NCBI GenBank assembly: GCA_016938235.1
Contig: JAFGVA010000223.1
Location: 406 to 64,405 of the forward strand
Reading direction: 5' to 3'
DNA from: Bacteroidales bacterium
GTDB lineage: Bacteria > Bacteroidota > Bacteroidia > Bacteroidales > UBA10428
Length of the DNA stretch: 64,000 bases
A model generated the notes under the pieces. The model ran no database searches, was not told the DNA's origin, and was given only the letters and a program-made list of their open reading frames with translations. A program made the translations under genes and the position numbers. Position 1 is the first letter of the stretch; each line of letters opens with the position of its first letter. Positions 1 to 58,014 of the stretch are shown in pieces.

Positions 1-142
1 GAAGGGTGAAAAGTGAAAAGTGAAGGGTGAAGGGTGAAGAGGGAATTGAGAATTGTGAATTGAGAATTGTGAATTGAGAACCGGGCAAAGCGAGCTCAAG
101 GACTGTAAAGAGTTAATTGTGAATTGAGAATGTTGATTTGTG
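1..142. repeat. Short-period (7-nt register) tandem arrays, cut by the left window edge
   Basis: Read directly: 6-40 GTGAAAA GTGAAAA GTGAAGG GTGAAGG GTGAAGA; 44-78 AATTGAG AATTGTG AATTGAG AATTGTG AATTGAG; 34-nt unique spacer; 115-142 AATTGTG AATTGAG AATGTTG ATTTGTG. Confidence 0.9.
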
Positions 143-366: not shown

Positions 367-2712
367 CTACTTACTAATAAAGAAAAATGTTCCATTCTTG
401 TCTTCAAGGCCTGCAATTCGGCCAAATTGGGGTTTTTGGGCGGTGTGTTTGTACATAACAATAGAAATACGCTCGGCAATGGCATCAATGGGTATGCAGT
501 CGGCCGGGTTGTTTGCCAGGGTGTTGGCAAAGGTGCTGGCAAATAATGAGTTGTCCATGGCCGCTTCGGTATTTGACGAGGTAAGCACCAGGGCCGATTT
601 TTGGTTTATCAGGTTCAAATTATCGCAACTTGCCAGGCTGTTGTCGCCTCGCATGGCCACGGTAAAGCTTTCGCCGGCTTCGCAGGCATCGCTAACAACC
701 AGAATATGGGTAAGCGACGAATAGCTGTACAACGAAGCTTTTAAAGCATTGATATTATAAAAGCTGTATTCGTCGTTTAGTCTTCCGTCAACCGGAATCC
801 AGTACCCGGTATTCTGCATGTTTTTTCCGTGTCCGGCATACCAAATCATAAGCGAGTTTACATGGTTCGCCAGGATTAAATCGCGTAAATCAAGAGCAAA
901 GAAACGCTCCATTTCTCTTTTCGACATGTTCTTCTTTACAAGTACTTTACTGATTTTGTACCTGTCAAGCGCCTGCACCAGGCTTTTCACATCATTCTCA
1001 GGATTTTTAAGGTTTGGAAACTGGTTATAATCTGAATTTTCGATAACAACCACCCAGGTTTTACCCATGGGATTATTTTCGTTAAGCATTTTCCCGTCAC
1101 GGGCAAATTCATAAATACTGCTGGCAGTATTACCGAATTTATCGGTGGCCGTAACCGTAATATTCCGGCGGTTACGAATATCAATTGTACCTGTAAACCT
1201 GGGGTTGTAATCACCCGGGGCAAAGCTGGCATTTACTTCGTCAATCTGAATTTTGGTAATGTTGCTTTTATCCTCAACCCGGCCTTCGATGTACAAAGAA
1301 TTATCGCCACTCTCAAGCCTTATAATGTGATTTGCTTCTGCAACCGGAGAAATTAAACTTATTATGGGGCTTTGAGTTTCTATTTTGCTTACAGGGTACG
1401 AAACACTGGATATATTTTCATAAATATCAGAAGCAGAAAAAGTTAAATAATCTGTTTCGCTTGCAGGCAATTCAACTTCGAAGCTGTAGGTTCCGGGGCT
1501 TTCCTGTTTTACTTCAATGCTCAGGTTGTTTATTTTGAAGTCCGATAAGAGGCTCTCTTCCTGCAGGGTGCCTTCAATACGTATAATATCCTCTTCTTCT
1601 TTCACCTGCAATTCCTGATTCTCGTTTAGTACGGGCAGAATAACAGTTATTTCCGGCTTATTGCTTTCTCTGCCAATCTCAAATATTTTTGTTTCAGCAA
1701 AACTTATTTCTCCTGCCGGGCCGTTTTGGTCTGAAAGAAGTTTTCTATAGGCCGAAAAGTCCTGAATGGCGCTTTTTTTATTGTTGAGCTTTTCGTAAGC
1801 AAGTCCACGGCTTTTGAAGGCAGAACTTACGGTGTCATTTATTTTCAATAGCAGGCTATAGTCGTCAACAGCATTGGCATACAGGGCATAATCAAAATTG
1901 TAATCGGCCCGGTATTTATACAATTCCCAGTTGTCTTTATCTATCGAAATAGCCTTGGTGATATCGGCAATGGCCTGCTCATATTCTTTTTGGCCGTGAA
2001 GAGCCATACTTCGGAGCTTAAGAGCTTGCACATTCATAGGGTCAATTAACAAGATAACCATGCTGCAATTATCAATGGCATAATCGTATTTTTTTTGTTC
2101 AAGCTGAATAGCTGCCAGTTCAAGAAACGATAGGGCAATTTTATTATCTCTGATAATAGATTTTTCAAGTTCCTTTATGGCCAGATCGGTTTGTCCCAGT
2201 CGATGGGCCGATGCTCCACTGTAATACCAGGCAATGCCCATATCTTTGGCTTTAACAGCTTCCTGTGCGCGTTCGTAAGCCTGTTGGTATTGTCCGCTTT
2301 CAAACAGAAGTTTGGTTTTAAAAAGCAGGAAATCGAAACTTTTAGGTTTAATGCTTAAGCCCGACTCAATACAGGCATCGGCATCGCCGGTTTGCGAAAG
2401 ATTATAAAACAGGGTGGCAGCTTTATAATAGTTTTCTTCAGGCAGGTAATTCAGAGCGGCAGACTTTTGATACAATACAGCGGCTTCCAGCGAATCATTT
2501 TTTAACAAAGAAACGGAAGCTTTTAACATATAGGCTTCGCCATCTGCAGCGTCGAGTTTTATAGCCTGGTCAAACTCTTCGTATGCAGCTTCAATCATAC
2601 CGTTTCCTAAAAATTGCTGGCCGGCTTTAATATGCTGTTTTGCACTTTGGGCGGAAACAACCAGGGGAAACAGGATTGCCAATACCGATGTTAGTAAAAA
2701 AATCCTCACCAC
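367..2712 (-). CDS. Secreted TPR-repeat protein with C-terminal caspase-like (peptidase C14) domain
   Basis: 781-aa ORF with GTG start. Signal peptide MVRIFLLTSVLAILFPLVVSAQS, then about 300 aa of TPR-like repeats and a beta-rich middle. The C-terminal 231 aa (370-1062) carry VVVIENSDY..NLKNPENDV, catalytic-type His in WYAGHG (codon 829-831) and Cys in VSDACEAG (codon 682-684). Confidence 0.85.
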   Translation of the reverse strand: MVRIFLLTSVLAILFPLVVSAQSAKQHIKAGQQFLGNGMIEAAYEEFDQAIKLDAADGEAYMLKASVSLLKNDSLEAAVLYQKSAALNYLPEENYYKAATLFYNLSQTGDADACIESGLSIKPKSFDFLLFKTKLLFESGQYQQAYERAQEAVKAKDMGIAWYYSGASAHRLGQTDLAIKELEKSIIRDNKIALSFLELAAIQLEQKKYDYAIDNCSMVILLIDPMNVQALKLRSMALHGQKEYEQAIADITKAISIDKDNWELYKYRADYNFDYALYANAVDDYSLLLKINDTVSSAFKSRGLAYEKLNNKKSAIQDFSAYRKLLSDQNGPAGEISFAETKIFEIGRESNKPEITVILPVLNENQELQVKEEEDIIRIEGTLQEESLLSDFKINNLSIEVKQESPGTYSFEVELPASETDYLTFSASDIYENISSVSYPVSKIETQSPIISLISPVAEANHIIRLESGDNSLYIEGRVEDKSNITKIQIDEVNASFAPGDYNPRFTGTIDIRNRRNITVTATDKFGNTASSIYEFARDGKMLNENNPMGKTWVVVIENSDYNQFPNLKNPENDVKSLVQALDRYKISKVLVKKNMSKREMERFFALDLRDLILANHVNSLMIWYAGHGKNMQNTGYWIPVDGRLNDEYSFYNINALKASLYSYSSLTHILVVSDACEAGESFTVAMRGDNSLASCDNLNLINQKSALVLTSSNTEAAMDNSLFASTFANTLANNPADCIPIDAIAERISIVMYKHTAQKPQFGRIAGLEDKNGTFFFISK

Positions 2713-2897
2713 TTAATTGAAAAACAGAAGGTTAATAATGCTAATGGCAAAACTACAAAAACTCTGCCAAAAGCAATTGTTAATTACTTTAAAAATTAAT
2801 TACTGTTTAGAAGGGATGATTAAAGAGGTATAAGAACAGTCACTTTCTTGTAATAAGTACGGAATTATTTGCAAATTGTTGCGTTGAAGCAAATTAT

Positions 2898-2950
2898 AAA
2901 CGTCATCCCTGCGCAGGCAGGGATCGGGTTTTTGGGGTATGGTATGACGG
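2898..2950. repeat. CGTCAT-hairpin intergenic element, short copy (53 nt)
   Basis: AAACGTCATCCCTGCGCAGGCAGGGATCGGGTTTTTGGGGTATGGTATGACGG. Internal stem CCCTGC/GCAGGG, inverted termini CGTCAT/ATGACG, same orientation as the copy at 204-303. Confidence 0.8.
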
Positions 2951-3065
2951 AAAGCAAGAATGGCAGTTCTGACCCAGAATTACAGTGCGAGTGAAAACAC
3001 AAAAAAAATGGGAGCGCCGAAGCACTCCCATTAATCTTAATCCTAACAATTAAAAAAAAATATCA

Positions 3066-4733
3066 CTACCAACCCTCATGTTGAGTAATTTTTCCACTAC
3101 TTGTGGTTATTTCTCTCTGAGGAATAGGCATAAAATCGTTCTTTGGAGATTCCCAAACAATCGGAAAACCTAACGGAGTTTCTGTATTATTCAGAAGATC
3201 ACGGGCAATGTTCCAACGAACCATATCGAAGTATCTTCTGCCTTCAAAAGCAAGTTCCATCCTTCTTTCAGCAATAAGCTGTGCAAGGGTTACAGTACCG
3301 GTTAAATCGGCAGGAACGGTTCCGTTACCACAATTTCTGGCGCGGCTTCTGACCATATTAATATATTCAAGAGCCTTTGCATTGTTGCCCAGCATTATTG
3401 CAGCTTCGCTGGCCATCAATAAGACATCAGCATAACGTAGCAATTTGATATTAGCAGGAGATTTTTGCCATCCGTGTCCACCAGCATTTGCAAATTGTTC
3501 AGCTGACAATTCATATTTCTTCATGTAATATCCTGTTCCTGAATTGTCGAAATTGGTTGGATGGTTAACACCACCCGAAATTTGTATAGAGTCGCCGGGC
3601 ATATTAACATTAGCATGCAATCTTGCATCATCGGCATCGTACTCATCAACCAGGCTTTGAGTTGGCCAGCCTAGTCCCCAGTAACCGGTTGTACCCTGAG
3701 TTCCGTCAGGATTTGAATAATACCTGGCCGAAGTCCATTGTACCAAAGAACCTGCGCGGGTTAAAGTATAGTCTAAGCCATCGTTTATATATTGAATCTC
3801 AAAGATAGACTCAGCGCAGTTTTCACCTTCTATAGTGAACATATACTGGTAGCCATTGGTTTCAGGGCCACGCCATGTGCTATAGGTTTCTCCTTCGGAG
3901 CCTACAAGACTGTATTCGCCTGAATTTCGAATATCTTCGCACACGTCTAATGCTTCCTGCCAGCGTGCTGTCATACCTTCGAAGCGTGCGTCACCAGGGA
4001 AATTGGTTGCATAAGACGATTCGAAGATTAACATACGTGCAAGCAGGGCTTTAGCAGCACCTTTGGTTGCTCTGCCAATATTTTGCGAAGAAAGAGCACT
4101 TTTTTCGGGTAGAACGGCCATAGCTTCTTTTAAATCCTGTTCAACAAGAAGATAAATATCTTTAATAGGAGCTACGTCAAGGTCATATTCACTTGGCAGT
4201 AAAATGTGGTCAGCCAGGGGTACCTGTCCAAAAATATTTGTAAGGTACATGTAATTAAGAGCCCTAAGGAACTTAAGTTCTGCCAGTCTTATATTAATAA
4301 TTTCCGGGTCAGCATTTGGGTCGGTTTCCAGAATATTAGGAATTTTTTCGAGGCCTGTATTACAGAAATGTACGCCTCTGAACATAACTCCGTAACAGTC
4401 TCCAAGAGCTCCACTGGTTGGCAGAAAGGTAAACCTGTTAAAATCCTCGGTACCAGGCACCTCATTTTCAAAATCTCCGCCAGCCTCGGCATCATTAGAG
4501 GTAACATCGCCCATAACAAAATTTATGTCTCTGTCCCAGGCAGTACGTGTACTTAATGTAGAGTATGCAGCAGCAACAGCAAGTTCAGCATGGTTCATGG
4601 TAAGATAGAAAGATGCACTGTTCTCAGCAGCAACCGGGTCAAAATCGAGAAAACTATCACTGCAGCTTTGGATAAGTAATCCAGCCAGAGCGAATAAACA
4701 TATTTTATAAATTTTAGCAATCATTTTTTTCAA
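3066..4733 (-). CDS. SusD/RagB-family nutrient-binding outer-membrane lipoprotein
   Basis: 555 aa. Lipoprotein signal ending LLIQSC, SusD-like length and helical/TPR-like composition. Lies 25 nt downstream of the SusC-like gene on the same strand. Confidence 0.85.
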   Translation of the reverse strand: MKKMIAKIYKICLFALAGLLIQSCSDSFLDFDPVAAENSASFYLTMNHAELAVAAAYSTLSTRTAWDRDINFVMGDVTSNDAEAGGDFENEVPGTEDFNRFTFLPTSGALGDCYGVMFRGVHFCNTGLEKIPNILETDPNADPEIINIRLAELKFLRALNYMYLTNIFGQVPLADHILLPSEYDLDVAPIKDIYLLVEQDLKEAMAVLPEKSALSSQNIGRATKGAAKALLARMLIFESSYATNFPGDARFEGMTARWQEALDVCEDIRNSGEYSLVGSEGETYSTWRGPETNGYQYMFTIEGENCAESIFEIQYINDGLDYTLTRAGSLVQWTSARYYSNPDGTQGTTGYWGLGWPTQSLVDEYDADDARLHANVNMPGDSIQISGGVNHPTNFDNSGTGYYMKKYELSAEQFANAGGHGWQKSPANIKLLRYADVLLMASEAAIMLGNNAKALEYINMVRSRARNCGNGTVPADLTGTVTLAQLIAERRMELAFEGRRYFDMVRWNIARDLLNNTETPLGFPIVWESPKNDFMPIPQREITTSSGKITQHEGW

Positions 4734-46700: not shown

Positions 46701-46761
46701 TACCATTTCACCCATTCAAGCATTCATTAATTCACTAATTCACTAATTCACTAATTCACCC
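46701..46761. repeat. 8-nt-period tandem array abutting the CDF transporter start codon
   Basis: Plus strand ..CATTCATTAATTCA CTAATTCA CTAATTCA CTAATTCA CCC-ATG. The minus-strand read is GTGAATTA x4 followed by ATGAATGC TTGAATGG GTGAAATGG. Confidence 0.9.
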
Positions 46762-50180: not shown

Positions 50181-50540
50181 ATGAAAAACAAAATATCATC
50201 AGAATTGCTTAAAGGTTCTTTGAAACCAATTATTCTAAAACTGCTGAAAGAGCAGGGCAGGATGTATGGCTACGAAATAACTCAACAGGTTGAGGAACTG
50301 AGCAAGGGTAAAATAGTGCTTACCTACGGGGCTCTTTATCCCATATTACACAAACTCGAAAACGATGAAATTGTAATTACCGAACAGGAAATTGTAAACA
50401 ACCGAACACGTGTTTACTATAAACTTACTCCAAAAGGTTCTGAAAAGTCGGTTGAGAAAATCAGAGAGATGGAGGCTTTTTTACAAACCTTGGGAATATT
50501 GTTTAAACCCAGTCCAAATGTTGGTCTATGCAATACCTGA
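50181..50540 (+). CDS. PadR-family transcriptional regulator
   Basis: 119 aa. LKGSLKPIILKLLKEQGRMYGYEITQQV.. and GALYPILHKLE are winged-helix PadR signatures. Confidence 0.88.
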   Translation: MKNKISSELLKGSLKPIILKLLKEQGRMYGYEITQQVEELSKGKIVLTYGALYPILHKLENDEIVITEQEIVNNRTRVYYKLTPKGSEKSVEKIREMEAFLQTLGILFKPSPNVGLCNT

Positions 50541-53037: not shown

Positions 53038-53799
53038 ATGAAGACAAAAGTTAAATTAATTATTGCATCAGCCCTTTTATCCGGAGTCTTTCAGATTGCT
53101 GTAAGAGCCCAGGATGCTACCGAGCTTATCAGAAAAGCAGACGCCAAAATGCGTGGAGAGAAATCGAGTTACAGCGTAATGAGCATGACCATTGTAAGGC
53201 CTACCTGGAACCGCACCATCAGCTTTAAAAGCTGGACAAAAGGAACCGAAAACTCTTTGGTGTACATTACTGCTCCTGCAAAAGAAAAGGGACTGGTTTT
53301 CCTTAAGCTTGACCGTGATATGTGGAGCTGGAATCCACAAATTAACCGTATGATTAAGCTGCCAACTTCTATGCTTTCGCAAGGTTGGATGGGTTCCGAT
53401 TTCACAAACGACGATTTGCTTAACCAAAGTTCGATAGTGGTTGATTATACCCATAAAATTCTTGCTGAAGAGACAGTTTCTGGCGAGGATTGCTACAAAA
53501 TTGAACTTATGCCAAAACCCGATGCACCGGTCGTATGGGGTAAAATAATTATGTGGGTCTCAAAAGCCCATATTACTGGAGTAAAAACTGAGTATTATGA
53601 CGAAGACGGGTACCTGGTAAAATCGGAGATTGGCATGGACTTCAAAGACATGAGTGGTCGTTATATCCCTACAAAATTTGAACTTATTCCTGCCGATGAA
53701 GAAGACAACAAAACCATTGTGGTAATGGAAAATATACAGTTCAATATTGCTATTGAAGATTCATTTTTCTCTCAACAGAATATGAAGAGGGTGAGATAA
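53038..53799 (+). CDS. LolA-like outer-membrane lipoprotein-sorting family protein
   Basis: 253 aa with signal peptide. MWSWNPQINRMIKLPTSMLSQGWMGSDFTNDDL is typical of the LolA-like family found next to FtsX-type permeases. Confidence 0.7.
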   Translation: MKTKVKLIIASALLSGVFQIAVRAQDATELIRKADAKMRGEKSSYSVMSMTIVRPTWNRTISFKSWTKGTENSLVYITAPAKEKGLVFLKLDRDMWSWNPQINRMIKLPTSMLSQGWMGSDFTNDDLLNQSSIVVDYTHKILAEETVSGEDCYKIELMPKPDAPVVWGKIIMWVSKAHITGVKTEYYDEDGYLVKSEIGMDFKDMSGRYIPTKFELIPADEEDNKTIVVMENIQFNIAIEDSFFSQQNMKRVR

Positions 53800-53832
53800 T
53801 TAATAATGTTGAATGAAAAATGTATAATGATT
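53798..53832 (+). repeat. Left heptamer array of the four-helix-bundle cassette
   Basis: AATTAAT AATGTTG AATGAAA AATGTAT AATGATT. Begins inside the stop codon of the upstream gene and ends 15 nt before the ATG. Confidence 0.85.
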
Positions 53833-53847
53833 TAACACCTAGATTAA

Positions 53848-54207
53848 ATGAAAACCGACAATGTCATTTTGGATAAAACTTATGCTTTTGCACTCAAAAT
53901 TGTAAAACTGTATTTACAACTTAAAAAAGATAATGAGTTTATTCTTTCCAGACAATTAGTGAAAAGTTCTACTTCAATAGGTGCTAATAGTGAGGAGGGT
54001 GCTGCTGCGCAATCTAAAAATGATTTTATTTCAAAATTTTCAATTGCTTTAAAAGAAGCAAGAGAATCAAGGTATTGGTTAAGATTACTTAGAGATAGTG
54101 AGTTGATTGACATTAACTACGCTGATATATTAATTGAAGAATGTAATGAGATAATCAGAATAATAACTTCAATTATTAAAACTGCTCGAAATAATACTAA
54201 AAGCTGA
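53848..54207 (+). CDS. Four-helix-bundle protein (23S rRNA intervening-sequence protein family; Avd-like)
   Basis: 119 aa. Core SIGANSEEGAAAQSKNDFISKFSIALKEARESRYWLRLL matches the family signature (..SI..N..EG......DF..K..IA.KEA.E..YWL.LL). Confidence 0.85.
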   Translation: MKTDNVILDKTYAFALKIVKLYLQLKKDNEFILSRQLVKSSTSIGANSEEGAAAQSKNDFISKFSIALKEARESRYWLRLLRDSELIDINYADILIEECNEIIRIITSIIKTARNNTKS

Positions 54208-54208
54208 A

Positions 54209-54243
54209 ACACATTATACATTATTCATTTTCAATTATTCATT
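54209..54243 (-). repeat. Right heptamer array of the four-helix-bundle cassette (inverted)
   Basis: The minus-strand read is AATGAAT AATTGAA AATGAAT AATGTAT AATGTGT. Begins 1 nt after the stop codon. Confidence 0.85.
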
Positions 54244-54258
54244 TTTAAACTGATTATT

Positions 54259-55677
54259 ATGAAATTATACAAAATAGCCTGGCGAAACCTTTGGAGGAAC
54301 AGAAAACGAACTGCTATTACTTCTGCTTCAATACTTTTTGCCGTTTTCTTTGCCGTTGTTATGAGGTCGTTAGAGCTCGGATTCTACGACCACATGATTA
54401 AAAATGCGATTGAATCCTATTCCGGATTTTTGCAAATCCAACATGTTGATTACCAAACCGATCCCTCTTTGGAAAATACCATTGAGCTCGATGAAGGATT
54501 CATTGCTCAGCTAGAAAATGCCGAAGGTGTAAAAGCTGTAGTACCAAGAGTGCAGACTTTTGCTTTAGCCTCCAGCGGAGAACAAACAAAAGGAGCTCTA
54601 ATTGTGGGGATAGATCCGGTTAAAGAGAAAAAATTGTCCAATCCAGAAATACGGTTAGTTAGACACCAATTTACTAAAGAGAATATTGAACGGCTTAATG
54701 AGAATTCCGGAATACCCGAATCTGTAAAAGAGAAACTAAACGGTCTGTTGTATAAATCTTATACAAACACAGGTACAATTGCTATGGACCTTGACCTTGA
54801 TGAGGAAGCTGAATCATTCTTACTCAGTATTCTCGGACAAGAAACAGCTTTTCCCGGAGAATACCTTCAAGCTAACGACGATGGAGTTTTGGTTTCAGAA
54901 CGTTTATCGAAGTACCTTAAACTTAAGGTTGGAGATACTCTTATTCTTTACGGACAGGGCTACCAGGGAGCAACCGCAGCAGATCTTTTCCCGGTGCGTG
55001 GCATTGTTAGTATTCCAAATCCGGAACTTGACAATAAACTGGTATATGCAAGCCTTGAGAAGGCTCAGTATTTTTCAAACCTTGGAAACCGTATTTCAAA
55101 TCTGGCAATCAACCTCGATGATAACAGCGATAAGAATTTAAAGTATATGGAAAAGAAACTTTCAGACATGTTAAATTCTGAAACTGTTACAGTTGAGAAC
55201 TGGAAAGTATTCAACAAAGTGCTCTGGCAGCAGATTGAGAGCGATAATAACAGCGGAATAATATTCCTTGGGCTGCTTTACTTCATTATTTTCTTCGGAA
55301 TATTTGGAACAGTGCTTATGATGATACATGAGCGTTATCGTGAATTCGGTGTAATGGTCTCCATTGGAATGCAAAAAACACGTCTTTCGGTTATTATGAT
55401 ATATGAGATGATATTGATGGGAATTCTGGGCGTTCTTTCCGGCATTATTTTAAGTCTTCCTTTAATTCTGACCATGCATTATAATCCGGTGCATCTGACA
55501 GGAGATATGGCACAAATGATGGAGGACATGGGATTCGAAGCTGTTATGCCCCTGGCAAGTCCCGGGATGTATATGGTTTGGCAGGCTGTAATTGTTGCAA
55601 TTATGGTGGCGCTTTCAAGTATATACCCCATACGCAAAATATTCGCTCTTAAAGAGATAGATGCACTCAGAGCTTAA
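54259..55677 (+). CDS. FtsX/MacB-type ABC transporter permease
   Basis: 472 aa. N-terminal AWRNLWRNRKRT, a large extracytoplasmic domain between TM1 and TM2, and a C-terminal FtsX 3-TM bundle. Confidence 0.85.
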   Translation: MKLYKIAWRNLWRNRKRTAITSASILFAVFFAVVMRSLELGFYDHMIKNAIESYSGFLQIQHVDYQTDPSLENTIELDEGFIAQLENAEGVKAVVPRVQTFALASSGEQTKGALIVGIDPVKEKKLSNPEIRLVRHQFTKENIERLNENSGIPESVKEKLNGLLYKSYTNTGTIAMDLDLDEEAESFLLSILGQETAFPGEYLQANDDGVLVSERLSKYLKLKVGDTLILYGQGYQGATAADLFPVRGIVSIPNPELDNKLVYASLEKAQYFSNLGNRISNLAINLDDNSDKNLKYMEKKLSDMLNSETVTVENWKVFNKVLWQQIESDNNSGIIFLGLLYFIIFFGIFGTVLMMIHERYREFGVMVSIGMQKTRLSVIMIYEMILMGILGVLSGIILSLPLILTMHYNPVHLTGDMAQMMEDMGFEAVMPLASPGMYMVWQAVIVAIMVALSSIYPIRKIFALKEIDALRA

Positions 55678-55701
55678 TTACTAACGAGAAAATCAATACA
55701 A

Positions 55702-57123
55702 ATGATACTATCAATTGGTTGGAAAAATGTTTGGCGAAATAAAACCCGGAGTATGGTTGTTATTGTCGCCGTTATGCTGGGAATTTTCGGAGGAGTAATG
55801 GCTTCCGGAATAATGAAAGGCTGGATAGCACAGCGCATTCATGCCAGTATTTACAACGAAATATCTCACGTTCAGATTCACAATCCTGAGTTCATGTTGA
55901 ATGAGGATATGAATCTGACTATTGAAAATGCTGAACAAATACTGAATGTTCTGGATACAATACCAGAGGTGGTAGCATATAGCCCAAGAGTTAAGCTCTT
56001 TGCCATGGTAAAAAGCGACTGGTCGACCTCGGGCTTATATGTTAAAGGTGTTGACAGGGATAAAGAAATTGAAGTTTCTGAAATCTATAAACATCTTTTG
56101 GAGGGTGATTTTCTGGAAGGAAAACACAGAATTCCTTCCATTGTAATAGGAAGTGATGCAGCGAAGGCACTCAAGCTGTTAAATTACCAGGTTACCCCGG
56201 AAAAAATCGATTCATTGAATGTTGAAGAGTACCCTGTTGAGATAATATCGAAATTGGGGGATATTGGTGACAAACGATTCAGAAAAGAAAAAGATTTCAG
56301 GGAAGCTTTAACCGAAAATCTGACTAAACACGAATACAAAGAATACGGAGACAAACTTGTTGAATATTTCTCATTTTACAGGTTGGGAGCAAAACTTGAG
56401 CTTACTCTTCAGGATACAAGCGGACAGATAATCAATCCGGTCTTTAAAATAAGGGGAATATACAAAACCAGCAATACCATGTTTGACGGACTAACCGCTT
56501 TTGTTGATCGCCAAAAACTTAATACCTATACAAAGCTTGGAGAAAATGATATTCATGAAATTGCAATAATCTCTACCGGGAACGATGAGGGAAAAGAATT
56601 AGGCATAACACTGGAAGAATATTTTGCAGGTAGCAGTGTGATGGGCTGGGATAAAATTTCTCCCGAAATAGCTATGTATACCCAGTTCACCAGTCTTATG
56701 GGGATAATTTTTGTAGGTATTATTCTGTTTGCACTGGCATTCGGTATTATTAATACCATGTTGATGTCTGTTTTGGAAAGAGTAAAGGAATTAGGTATGT
56801 TAATGGCAATTGGCATGAACAGGAAAAGAGTGTTTTACATGATAATGGCCGAATCAATTTTTCTTACGATAACCGGTGCAATTGCAGGAATGATCTTCAG
56901 TGGGATCATTCTTGAGATTACCGGCAGAACGGGCATTAATTTCAATATGTATGCCGAAGGCTTTGAAGCACTTGGATATTCATCTGTTGTTTATCCAACT
57001 GTCTCGTGGTTCGATTATATTTCTATAATAATTCTGGTAATAATTACAGGTATTATTTCATCTATCTGGCCGGCCAGAAAGGCATTGAAGCTTAATCCTG
57101 TGGAAGCACTTAGGACGGATTAA
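55702..57123 (+). CDS. FtsX/MacB-type ABC transporter permease (paralog)
   Basis: 473 aa. GWKNVWRNKTRS and the same architecture as the preceding gene. Confidence 0.85.
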   Translation: MILSIGWKNVWRNKTRSMVVIVAVMLGIFGGVMASGIMKGWIAQRIHASIYNEISHVQIHNPEFMLNEDMNLTIENAEQILNVLDTIPEVVAYSPRVKLFAMVKSDWSTSGLYVKGVDRDKEIEVSEIYKHLLEGDFLEGKHRIPSIVIGSDAAKALKLLNYQVTPEKIDSLNVEEYPVEIISKLGDIGDKRFRKEKDFREALTENLTKHEYKEYGDKLVEYFSFYRLGAKLELTLQDTSGQIINPVFKIRGIYKTSNTMFDGLTAFVDRQKLNTYTKLGENDIHEIAIISTGNDEGKELGITLEEYFAGSSVMGWDKISPEIAMYTQFTSLMGIIFVGIILFALAFGIINTMLMSVLERVKELGMLMAIGMNRKRVFYMIMAESIFLTITGAIAGMIFSGIILEITGRTGINFNMYAEGFEALGYSSVVYPTVSWFDYISIIILVIITGIISSIWPARKALKLNPVEALRTD

Positions 57124-57217
57124 TGATTAATGTATAATGAAGAATGTATAATGAAGAATGTATAATGAAGAATGTATAATGAAGAATGTATAATGAAGAA
57201 TGCATAATTTATAATTG
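57122..57217 (+). repeat. Tandem array of the 14-mer AATGTATAATGAAG (5 perfect copies plus degenerate ends)
   Basis: AATGATT, then 57129-57198 as 5 x AATGTATAATGAAG, then AATGCATAATTTAT AATTG. Starts inside the permease stop codon. Confidence 0.95.
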
Positions 57218-57315
57218 TTGAACTAGAAACATTGAACTAGGAACATTGAACTAGAAACATTGAACTAGAAACATTGAACTAGAAACATTGAACTAGAAAC
57301 ATTGAACTAGAAACT
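57218..57315 (+). repeat. Tandem array of the 14-mer TTGAACTAGAAACA (7 copies)
   Basis: Seven contiguous units. Unit 2 has A to G (TTGAACTAGGAACA) and unit 7 ends ..AAACT. The array ends 15 nt before the ATPase ATG. Confidence 0.95.
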
Positions 57316-57330
57316 TTAAACTTAACAATC

Positions 57331-58014
57331 ATGAAAGTAATAGAACTAAAAAAAGTAGAAAAAATATATAACGACTCAGAAGTAAAAGTACATGCGGTGC
57401 GTGGTATTGATCTTGAGTTCGAAGAAGGCGAATTTGCAGCCATCGTTGGCCCCTCAGGTTCAGGAAAAACAACTCTGTTGAATATGCTTGGCGGGTTAGA
57501 TAAACCTACAGTTGGCGATATCTACATTGGAGGCACACACATTAACGATCTGTCAGGTTCGAAACTTATAGATTTTCGTTTGTTCAACATCGGCTTCGTA
57601 TTTCAGTCCTATAACCTCATACCGGTTTTAACTGCGAAAGAAAACGTTGAGTTTATCATGCAGATGCAGGGTATTTCGCAGGAGGAACGTTACCAGCGAA
57701 CCAAAGCTTTATTGGAGGAAGTAGGACTGGGAGACAGACTCGATAGTCGGCCCAAGCAACTTTCAGGCGGTCAGCAACAGCGAGTGGCAGTGGCAAGAGC
57801 ATTAGCATCTAAGCCAAAATTTGTTCTTGCCGACGAACCAACAGCAAACCTCGATTCAAAATCGACAGAGAATCTGCTGGAAATAATGGAAAAACTGAAT
57901 AAGGAAGAAAACATAACTTTCATCTTTTCTACACACGATCAGCGGGTTGTTAAAAAAGCACGCAGGGTTATTACCGTTGAAGATGGTAAGGTGTTGAGCG
58001 ATGAGCGAAAGTAG
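57331..58014 (+). CDS. ABC transporter ATP-binding protein (MacB/LolD-like)
   Basis: 227 aa. Walker A GPSGSGKTT, signature LSGGQQQRVAVARAL, Walker B FVLADEPT. Confidence 0.93.
   Translation: MKVIELKKVEKIYNDSEVKVHAVRGIDLEFEEGEFAAIVGPSGSGKTTLLNMLGGLDKPTVGDIYIGGTHINDLSGSKLIDFRLFNIGFVFQSYNLIPVLTAKENVEFIMQMQGISQEERYQRTKALLEEVGLGDRLDSRPKQLSGGQQQRVAVARALASKPKFVLADEPTANLDSKSTENLLEIMEKLNKEENITFIFSTHDQRVVKKARRVITVEDGKVLSDERK

Follow-up and report, generated by a model that had tools for sequence, protein, structure and literature searches.

In Coxiella, the intervening sequence (IVS) of the 23S rRNA gene carries an S23p open reading frame (ORF) and is closed by a 28-bp terminal stem that is cut by RNase III; just before the ORF stand two to three tandem GACAGAT heptamers, in a copy number that varies among strains (PMC4990558). 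Tandem 7-nt units are known elsewhere. Short tandemly repeated repetitive (STRR) hairpins of 7 bp lie between hupS and hupL in cyanobacteria (PMC2670836), TAACTGA repeats occur in Beggiatoaceae, Cyanobacteria and some Bacteroidetes (MacGregor 2015, PMC4679880), and STRR have also been reported from inside the gene for RNase P RNA (Vioque 1997). Roles in transcript stability, translational coupling or regulation have been proposed for such repeats (PMC2670836; PMC4679880). Genes of the PF05635 family were noted in 2013 wedged inside cas operons (PMC3936711), and Avd, from diversity-generating retroelements (DGRs), assembles as a pentamer and, within a ribonucleoprotein (RNP) complex, binds both nucleic acid and protein (4DWL; 8UBE). 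We report here a 446-bp cassette in which a PF05635 gene lies between two inverted arrays of 7-nt units, found in an exporter operon of a Bacteroidales bacterium, in a 64,000-nt stretch of contig JAFGVA010000223.1 (hereafter the window; coordinates refer to it unless a locus label is given).

The unit is, with high probability, a member of a conserved class of arm-ORF-arm cassettes that was inserted into the operon. Members of this class hold the PF05635 gene in a loop, and their hairpin arms are inverted short tandem arrays with a unit of 7 nt, sometimes 8. This general rule for the family is more interesting than the observation at the single locus.

The cassette and its insertion site

The host cluster has the order TetR, small membrane protein, LolA_like, FtsX, FtsX, ATP-binding cassette (ABC) ATPase, DUF1302. 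The features at the junction are these:

53038..53799, + strand: upstream host gene, LolA_like (PF17131), a lipoprotein-sorting-like protein (profile match)
53798..53832, + strand: 5′ arm, five heptamers AATTAAT AATGTTG AATGAAA AATGTAT AATGATT (read from the sequence)
53848..54207, + strand: cassette ORF, a 119-aa four-helix-bundle protein of PF05635/TIGR02436 (profile match)
54209..54243, − strand: 3′ arm, minus-strand heptamers AATGAAT AATTGAA AATGAAT AATGTAT AATGTGT (read from the sequence)
53798..54243, + strand: entire 446-bp cassette (arm, ORF, arm), missing from the orthologous spacer of the closest relatives
54259..55677, + strand: downstream host gene, the first FtsX/MacB-type permease (FtsX1), starting 16 nt past the 3′ arm

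The boundaries are where the first-pass annotation of this DNA had placed them: the TAA stop of LolA_like (53797-53799) shares bases with the heptamer that opens the 5′ arm, and the 3′ arm sets in 1 nt past the TGA of the ORF (54205-54207). Its reading of the arrays was also exact, letter by letter, with five units of the form AATKNNN in each arm. That number describes the window locus and does not extend to the family, where arms most often have 4-5 units and vary from 3 to 19. The arms had been described as composite terminal inverted repeats, and a repeat search agrees, pairing 53798-53829 with 54212-54243 over 32 nt at 81% complementarity.

Presence of the cassette is polymorphic, as can be seen in 16 orthologous TetR-LolA_like-FtsX-FtsX-ABC operons that were recovered from metagenomes and compared. 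The four closest (L083-L086; 64-65% identity in LolA_like) have an ORF-less LolA_like|FtsX1 spacer of 25-40 nt, and this junction also lacks an ORF in most of the more distant operons (L091-L093, L095, L098). Because the closest and most of the more distant operons are without the ORF, the empty spacer is the ancestral state and the window cassette is a gain. It was thus inserted, in sense orientation, into a 25-40-nt spacer with hardly any room for a promoter. Cassette GC content is 28%, compared with 38-42% in the flanking operon genes, a dip that fits an insertion. The Logan assembly of a separate read set (SRR13394436) reproduces the cassette region with zero mismatches.

Other spacers of these operons are occupied in other ways. 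At the same LolA|FtsX1 junction, L097 holds a 37%-identical PF05635 gene of a different lineage with its own inverted arrays, acquired independently. At FtsX2|ABC, L087 has a PF05635 cassette whose arms have an 8-nt period (AATGNNNN), and its close relative L094 has there only a long, solo, expanded array of the 5′ type with no ORF. ORF-less inverted arrays surround cores of 70-110 nt at FtsX1|FtsX2 in L092 and L087, and L090 carries a short ORF-less inverted array pair at LolA|FtsX1. Elements with and without a gene have thus entered the spacers of this exporter operon repeatedly and independently. An insert of a different kind lies at LolA|FtsX1 in L088 (1727-1815), where it is GC-rich, palindromic and resembles repetitive extragenic palindromic (REP) elements (ccttcgactccgctcaggctgac...gtcacgctgagcggagtcgaagc). 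Heptamer arrays of the (CTGAGAG)n type, and related AGAG-rich ones, follow directly after the LolA_like stop in L094 (4750-5087) and L087 (4592-4806); after them come 200-300 nt without a PF05635 match.

Chance periodicity of AT-rich spacers beside an ordinary small gene could be suspected from the 37% GC content of the genome and from the moderate period-7 autocorrelation of the left arm, which is 0.61; that of the right arm is 0.71, and neighbouring periods except 14 give 0.2-0.45. However, values of at least 0.6 occur in only 11 segments of the 64-kb window. AT-matched control 35-mers (at least 80% AT) were taken from outside the five array regions; 0.13% of them score as high as the left arm, and not one scores as high as the right arm. 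Composition shuffles of arm periodicity give p = 0.008 (left) and p < 5e-5 (right). Strong 7/8-nt periodicity is confined, among 40 intergenic regions, to 1-142, 46701-46761, the cassette flanks and 57121-57322, that is, to 4-5 of the 40. Given the AT-matched, shuffle and intergenic controls, the arms are not generic AT-rich low complexity; comparable arrays are no general feature of the AT-rich intergenic DNA of this genome. Since arrays with co-varying arms are moreover found family-wide in GC-rich and AT-rich hosts alike (see below), the chance of this explanation is practically nil and we take it as refuted.

The family of the encoded protein, PF05635/TIGR02436, belongs to the small families of unknown function that are met most often in Bacteroidota, Cyanobacteria and many other phyla; to our knowledge the DGR factor Avd is its sole studied relative. 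Membership of the cassette protein, claimed earlier from the sequence signature, is confirmed by scores above both curated cut-offs: 89.8 bits for PF05635 (cut-off 33.8) and 104.8 bits for TIGR02436 (cut-off 24). The nearest solved structure is 2RLD, which is BT_0352 (phmmer E = 6e-26). An AlphaFold2 model has four helices (residues 6-27, 32-52, 57-83 and 89-115; mean predicted local distance difference test score 93.9), with Foldseek template modelling scores of 0.85-0.94 to 2RLD, about 0.72 to Xcc0516 (2GSC) and 0.7-0.8 to bAvd. From the family motif GxxRxxxSxxxNxxE (Lin 2006; Zhang & Ye 2013), S43, N47 and E50 are invariant in our alignment, and the R position is K39 in the window protein. 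PADLOC gave no defence-system match for the protein. A PadR gene at 50181-50540 encodes a product of equal length, 119 aa, and was set aside as unrelated to the cassette protein.

The fold similarity to bAvd, together with weak matches to the Avd models PF22296 (20 bits) and NF033474 (24 bits), raises the question of whether the gene is the Avd of a DGR or of its remnant. These scores are far under the cut-offs of 40 and 80, and no reverse transcriptase or template/variable repeat pair occurs within ±10 kb of the cassette, where the neighbours are PadR, TetR, LolA_like, two FtsX, ABC, DUF1302, H+-pyrophosphatase and similar genes. We therefore conclude that the cassette gene is not a DGR component. 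As most of the 80 loci surveyed below are ordinary operons too, we give this explanation a very small probability.

The same layout across the protein family

We surveyed the family with one genome per species, which yielded 80 loci, spread over Bacteroidota, Verrucomicrobiota, Planctomycetota, Pseudomonadota, Ignavibacteriota, Cloacimonadota, Chloroflexota, Patescibacteria, Cyanobacteria and others. The 77 intact genes that were analysed, including that of the window, represent more than 10 phyla. An array was called when it had a period of 7 and was at least 21 nt long. Arrays were found upstream in 59/77 genes, downstream in 62/77, on both sides in 49/77 (64%) and on neither side in 5/77, so that 94% have at least one. 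The suggestion that other family members carry inverted periodic flanks is thereby borne out. Under a stricter criterion, positives made up 60% and 68% of the flanks, compared with 7 of 750 random segments (0.9%) from the same loci.

The heptamer differs by locus (AATTAGG, AATTAAG, AATTACG, AATTTTA, AATGTTG, GTTTTGA and others), and the two arms of a locus agree with each other, which amounts to covariation on a broad scale. The upstream unit is the reverse complement of the downstream one, with at most one mismatch, in 43 of the 49 loci with both arrays; for cross-locus pairs the agreement is 27% and for same-strand comparison 24%. Local alignment of arm to arm scores a median of 38 against 20 across loci, and minimum free energy (MFE) folds of the ORF ± 70 nt contain a median of 23 end-to-end pairs, compared with 6 in control segments. 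More distant subfamilies use other units in the same layout, as in the second copies of L052, L056, L066 and L072 and in L087 and L097. A copy on a Nostoc plasmid has (AATTCAA)x4 ... (TTGAATT)x4 arms.

Cassettes read in the direction of the upstream neighbour in 68/73 cases (93%, p = 3e-15) and of the downstream neighbour in 61/74. Median gaps to these neighbours are 56 and 48 nt, respectively, so the arms essentially fill the spacers. The array enters the ATG in about a third of the loci; in about 40% it begins in the final codons of the ORF or in its stop codon. Since no fixed register of the array relative to the ATG was seen in the surveyed loci, we gave up the hypothesis that every start codon is a unit in phase with the array.

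Two survey loci have tRNA genes close by. In L016, from an Opitutales metagenome-assembled genome, seven AATTAGG/CCTAATT arrays lie within 2.5 kb around tRNA-Ser (1300-3750). An intact PF05635 cassette begins 43 nt after this tRNA gene, and a truncated N-terminal remnant of a second PF05635 subfamily is also present (ORF 2190-2408); the region is a local pile-up of cassettes plus array debris. In L048, tRNA-Thr is found 32 nt past the cassette.

Selection was gauged on orthologous cassettes downstream of a thiolase gene in Flavobacteriales, which are kept across Flavobacterium, Chryseobacterium, Elizabethkingia and Epilithonimonas. Ratios of nonsynonymous to synonymous substitution (dN/dS) for these orthologues are 0.05-0.11, and the arms stay complementary (32/32 in L046, for example). 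The low dN/dS and the retention across genera indicate that the protein is functional and that a cassette can be very stable. In L052, L066 and L072 (about 1350-1740 and 2995-3351; Weeksellaceae/Flavobacteriaceae) the thiolase gene stands between two PF05635 cassettes of different subfamilies, each with its own inverted heptamer arms and with differing units.

Arrays also occur without an ORF. The window has four such features:

57121..57208, + strand: ORF-less direct array, TAATGAAGAATGTA x6.3, between FtsX2 and the ABC ATPase
57218..57322, + strand: second ORF-less direct array, TTGAACTAGAAACA x7.5, not complementary to 57121-57208
46701..46761, + strand: ORF-less array of 8-nt period, ATTCACTA x4.8, 96% matches
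1..142, + strand: ORF-less heptamer arrays, GAAGGGT/GAAAAGT then GAATTGA/GAATTGT, around a 32-nt unique core

The first-pass annotation had assigned 1-142, 46701-46761 and 57122-57217 to the heptamer vocabulary of the cassette. This holds for 57121-57208, whose units (AATGAAG AATGTAT) are identical in 19/21 nt to the 5′ arm of the cassette 3 kb away in the same operon, and only loosely for 1-142 (GAAGGGT/GAATTGA) and for 46701-46761, with its 8-nt ATTCACTA. Both arrays in 57121-57322 consist of 14-nt tandem units with 95% matches each (Tandem Repeats Finder), and they fill a FtsX2|ABC spacer that is about 46 nt in L086 and L098. The Logan assembly, of the same population, ends inside the first 14-mer array, at 57158, so its copy number may vary or be beyond resolution by short reads. 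The array at 46701-46761 runs up to the ATG of a cation-efflux gene (PF01545). In L087 and L081, too, PF05635 genes are flanked by arms of 8-nt period, so a period of 7 is not a strict rule. The arrays at 1-142 reach about 35 nt beyond the start of the window, for about 160 nt of arrays in total, within a 748-nt spacer (1-366 in the window, continuing in L099 17660-18407) between TPR/Peptidase_C14 and DUF2341 genes, both on the minus strand. A separate imperfect palindrome at about 195-235 (...cgtcatcccttcgcatgaagggatc...) seems to be a different small repeat element.

These arrays bear on an explanation that overlaps with ours, in which gene and arrays are a cognate protein-site module: each PF05635 paralogue would bind its own heptamer as a pentamer, one unit per subunit, with the gene autoregulated. 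ORF-less arrays of the same vocabulary would then be targets in trans, forming a post-transcriptional or DNA-level regulon. It differs from the cassette reading in that the host would benefit and that binding would be the main role of the arrays. Of 57 ORF-less arrays located elsewhere in the same 6-kb loci, 36 carry the heptamer of the local cassette with at most one mismatch, against 27% across loci, and the window itself repeats left-arm units at 57121-57208. A vocabulary shared within a genome would, however, be expected just as much if one element family had spread locally or undergone gene conversion. The AAT[T/G] core of the heptamer is kept across phyla, including GC-rich hosts (L016, L018, L039), with the other positions variable, and this points to recognition beyond pairing. 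The modal 4-5 units per arm agree with the pentamers of 2RLD, Xcc0516 and bAvd, but the number spans 3-19. Low dN/dS and retention at one site across genera are in its favour, and translational regulation by intergenic heptamer repeats has been proposed before (MacGregor 2015, PMC4679880). A regulator would be less expected than an accessory or selfish element to occupy scattered, context-independent sites and to leave clean empty sites in close relatives, and PF05635 genes have been reported among strain-unique genes. On balance we consider the module rather unlikely.

Proposed expression, folding and spread

We propose that transcription of the host operon reads through into the cassette. 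The arrays would then pair in the transcript into a duplex of 28-35 bp with the insert looped out, a putative substrate of RNase III. Such looping-out could make the insertion tolerable to the host, and it could control access to the start and stop codons of the cassette, which in many members lie inside the arms. The Avd-like protein, expected to form a pentamer, is most likely a binder of nucleic acid, with its own arrays and the matching ORF-less ones as plausible targets. Spread would be rare, probably by means of host functions or recombination at pre-existing arrays, and a cassette once inserted could persist at one site across genera.

In the predicted RNA fold of 53790-54252, MFE and centroid structures alike are closed by a stem made of the two arms, with z = -3.16 and 0/100 shuffles equally stable. 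No intrinsic terminator was predicted at the window cassette. A sigma-70 scan gave matches in the arms (TATAAT within AATGTATAATG) little above shuffle expectation; Bacteroidales promoters differ, and the matches were not used. The chance that the RNA stem and RNase III act on the cassette in this way seems to us a little short of even. Because class membership is far more secure than this mechanism, we rate their combination, a widespread promoterless class of operon-riding stem-loop cassettes with the RNA-stem mechanism included, as somewhat probable.

Several results weigh against parts of this proposal. If the arms were kept for pairing as sense RNA, G:U mismatches could be expected to outnumber A:C; over 1,923 arm columns the counts were 50 and 49, so complementarity may be kept at the DNA level or by copying from arm to arm. 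An E-value-mode Rfam scan of 53500-57500 found no relevant family and no rRNA. Not every array is a hairpin, as those at 57121-57322 are direct and the fold of 57100-57335 is not significant (z = -0.78). In three Chitinophagaceae loci (L043, L058, L071) a hairpin with a GC stem and a T run (e.g. aagcatttgctactttggtggcaaatgctttttt) stands within the arms, about 40 nt ahead of the ORF, with the 5′ array on one side and the ATG on the other; it is terminator- or attenuator-like and sits awkwardly with simple expression by read-through. Cross-genus retention under strong purifying selection is as compatible with a gene that benefits the host as with a selfish one.

Nor was evidence of recent movement found. 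There is one cassette copy in the 64-kb window and in the 74-kb contig, and no target-site duplication is visible at the arms. P0060, an identical Marinimicrobia protein present in 323 collection blocks, was always at one locus in the 24 contigs read, and three identical copies on Nostoc flagelliforme plasmids lie in a larger segmental duplication. The P0060 and Nostoc copies are uninformative on mobility because of the single site and the duplicated backbone, respectively. The P0060 gene (L101-L110) always directly follows a HicA/HicB toxin-antitoxin pair, and a convergent NAD kinase gene comes next. Near-identical copies at differing sites were found neither in the window and the 74-kb contig nor among the P0060 contigs and the Nostoc plasmids. 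The cassette neighbourhood has no integrase. Phages are not an obvious vehicle, with homologues in 2 of 50,697 records of a phage collection.

Finally, the stem-loop model does not account for the 7-nt period. As 7 is coprime with 3, the arrays may bring stop codons, and in AATG units start codons, into every frame; tandem units may pair in several registers and may be quickly re-homogenised by slippage; and one heptamer may be bound by each subunit of the protein.

A DNA transposon resembling miniature inverted-repeat transposable elements (MITEs) would explain some of the same facts, with the arrays as terminal inverted repeats or hairpin ends for a recombinase encoded elsewhere and the ORF as passenger or accessory. 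The inverted arrays lie exactly at the insert boundaries, ORF-less inverted-array derivatives resemble MITEs, and insertions in the same operon have been independent. The absence of asymmetry between G:U and A:C is what a constraint at the DNA level predicts, and older hypotheses hold IVSs to be remnants of transposition (PMC4990558). However, we saw no target-site duplication, multiple near-identical copies or linked transposase; no direct repeat abuts the arms, and the empty-site relatives, at 65% amino acid identity, are too diverged for a base-level comparison of the junction. The ORF is strongly conserved, unlike a passenger, and 93% sense orientation with a tight fit between co-directional genes would be unexpected unless selection were very strong. 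We know of no transposase end sites that look like tandem 7-nt units. Such a transposon is improbable.

We retain the description of the unit as a small non-autonomous cassette with composite inverted ends, as first suggested: the family-wide arrays, the empty sites and the AT controls, three checks named by the first-pass annotation of which each could have refuted it, all support it, and there is no sign of recent transposition.

Comparison with known systems

The protein family, the rRNA IVSs and the STRR arrays were each already known. In the full-text literature, with most subscription journals outside its scope, we found no statement that free-standing PF05635 genes are regularly enclosed by inverted short-tandem arrays, and no mention of sense-oriented, operon-riding PF05635 genes or of ORF-less counterparts at the same sites. 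S23p and PF05635 have 0 occurrences in the report on TAACTGA repeats (PMC4679880). The heptamer arrays and the origin of ORF-bearing rRNA IVSs have long been unexplained, and the survey ties both to the PF05635 family. There are practical consequences as well: arrays break short-read assemblies, and cassettes split operons that annotation pipelines treat as contiguous.

A wider reading would make PF05635 proteins and the 7-8-nt intergenic arrays (STRR, TAACTGA-type repeats, rRNA IVS stems, arrays in RNase P RNA) a single phylum-spanning system. The pentamer would recognise its cognate arrays and perhaps generate, homogenise or propagate them, with cassettes as the autonomous form and the ORF-less arrays, which are far more numerous, as non-autonomous derivatives or targets in trans. 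If true, it would supply the first function for a very large protein family and a mechanism for arrays known since 1990. We regard it as possible, though doubtful.

The ORF-bearing IVSs in 23S and 16S rRNA genes of Leptospira, Coxiella, Xanthomonas, Brucella and bacteria of the candidate phyla radiation (CPR) are like the cassette in their S23p protein, which is PF05635, in being embedded in a host transcript and in having a stem that encloses the ORF. The Coxiella IVS is also of similar size, about 430-450 nt compared with 446 bp, and both IVSs and cassettes have ORF-less counterparts (PMC4990558; bioRxiv 10.1101/2024.02.27.582315). Unlike the IVSs, the cassette lies in an intergenic spacer between protein genes, LolA_like and FtsX, rather than in an rRNA helix, and both of its arms consist wholly of tandem 7-nt units. 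Excision by RNase III is demonstrated for IVSs and, by analogy, putative for the cassette. The Coxiella ORF is undergoing decay, in contrast to the free-standing copies, on which strong purifying selection acts.

STRR and other heptamer repeats share with the cassette arms their tandem 7-nt units in intergenic and often intra-operon positions, the capacity to form hairpins, and presence or absence between close relatives. The reported arrays are gene-less, whereas those of the cassette are arms around a specific protein gene, in Bacteroidales and in more than 10 other phyla. Avd (bAvd, PDB 4DWL; DGR RNP, 8UBE) is a four-helix bundle homologous to the cassette protein. The cassette has neither reverse transcriptase nor template/variable repeats, and descriptions of Avd genes do not place them between inverted heptamer arrays.

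Correia elements/Neisseria miniature insertion sequences (NEMIS), enterobacterial repetitive intergenic consensus (ERIC), BOX and REP sequences are, like the cassette, small non-autonomous spacer inserts with inverted ends that form hairpins, co-transcription being a property of these repeats. The Correia hairpins of Neisseria are substrates of RNase III. These repeats are, however, non-coding, high-copy and near-identical, with non-periodic inverted repeats and target duplications, whereas the cassette encodes a conserved protein and is low-copy and divergent, with periodic arms. Integron cassettes share with the window cassette a promoterless single ORF in sense orientation behind host transcription and a hairpin site. 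A single attC on the 3′ side of the ORF, a neighbouring integrase with attI, and arrays of cassettes characterise them; none of these is found at the window cassette, where repeat arrays stand on both sides. What seems new is an IVS-like element that lies outside rRNA and has arms of the STRR type.

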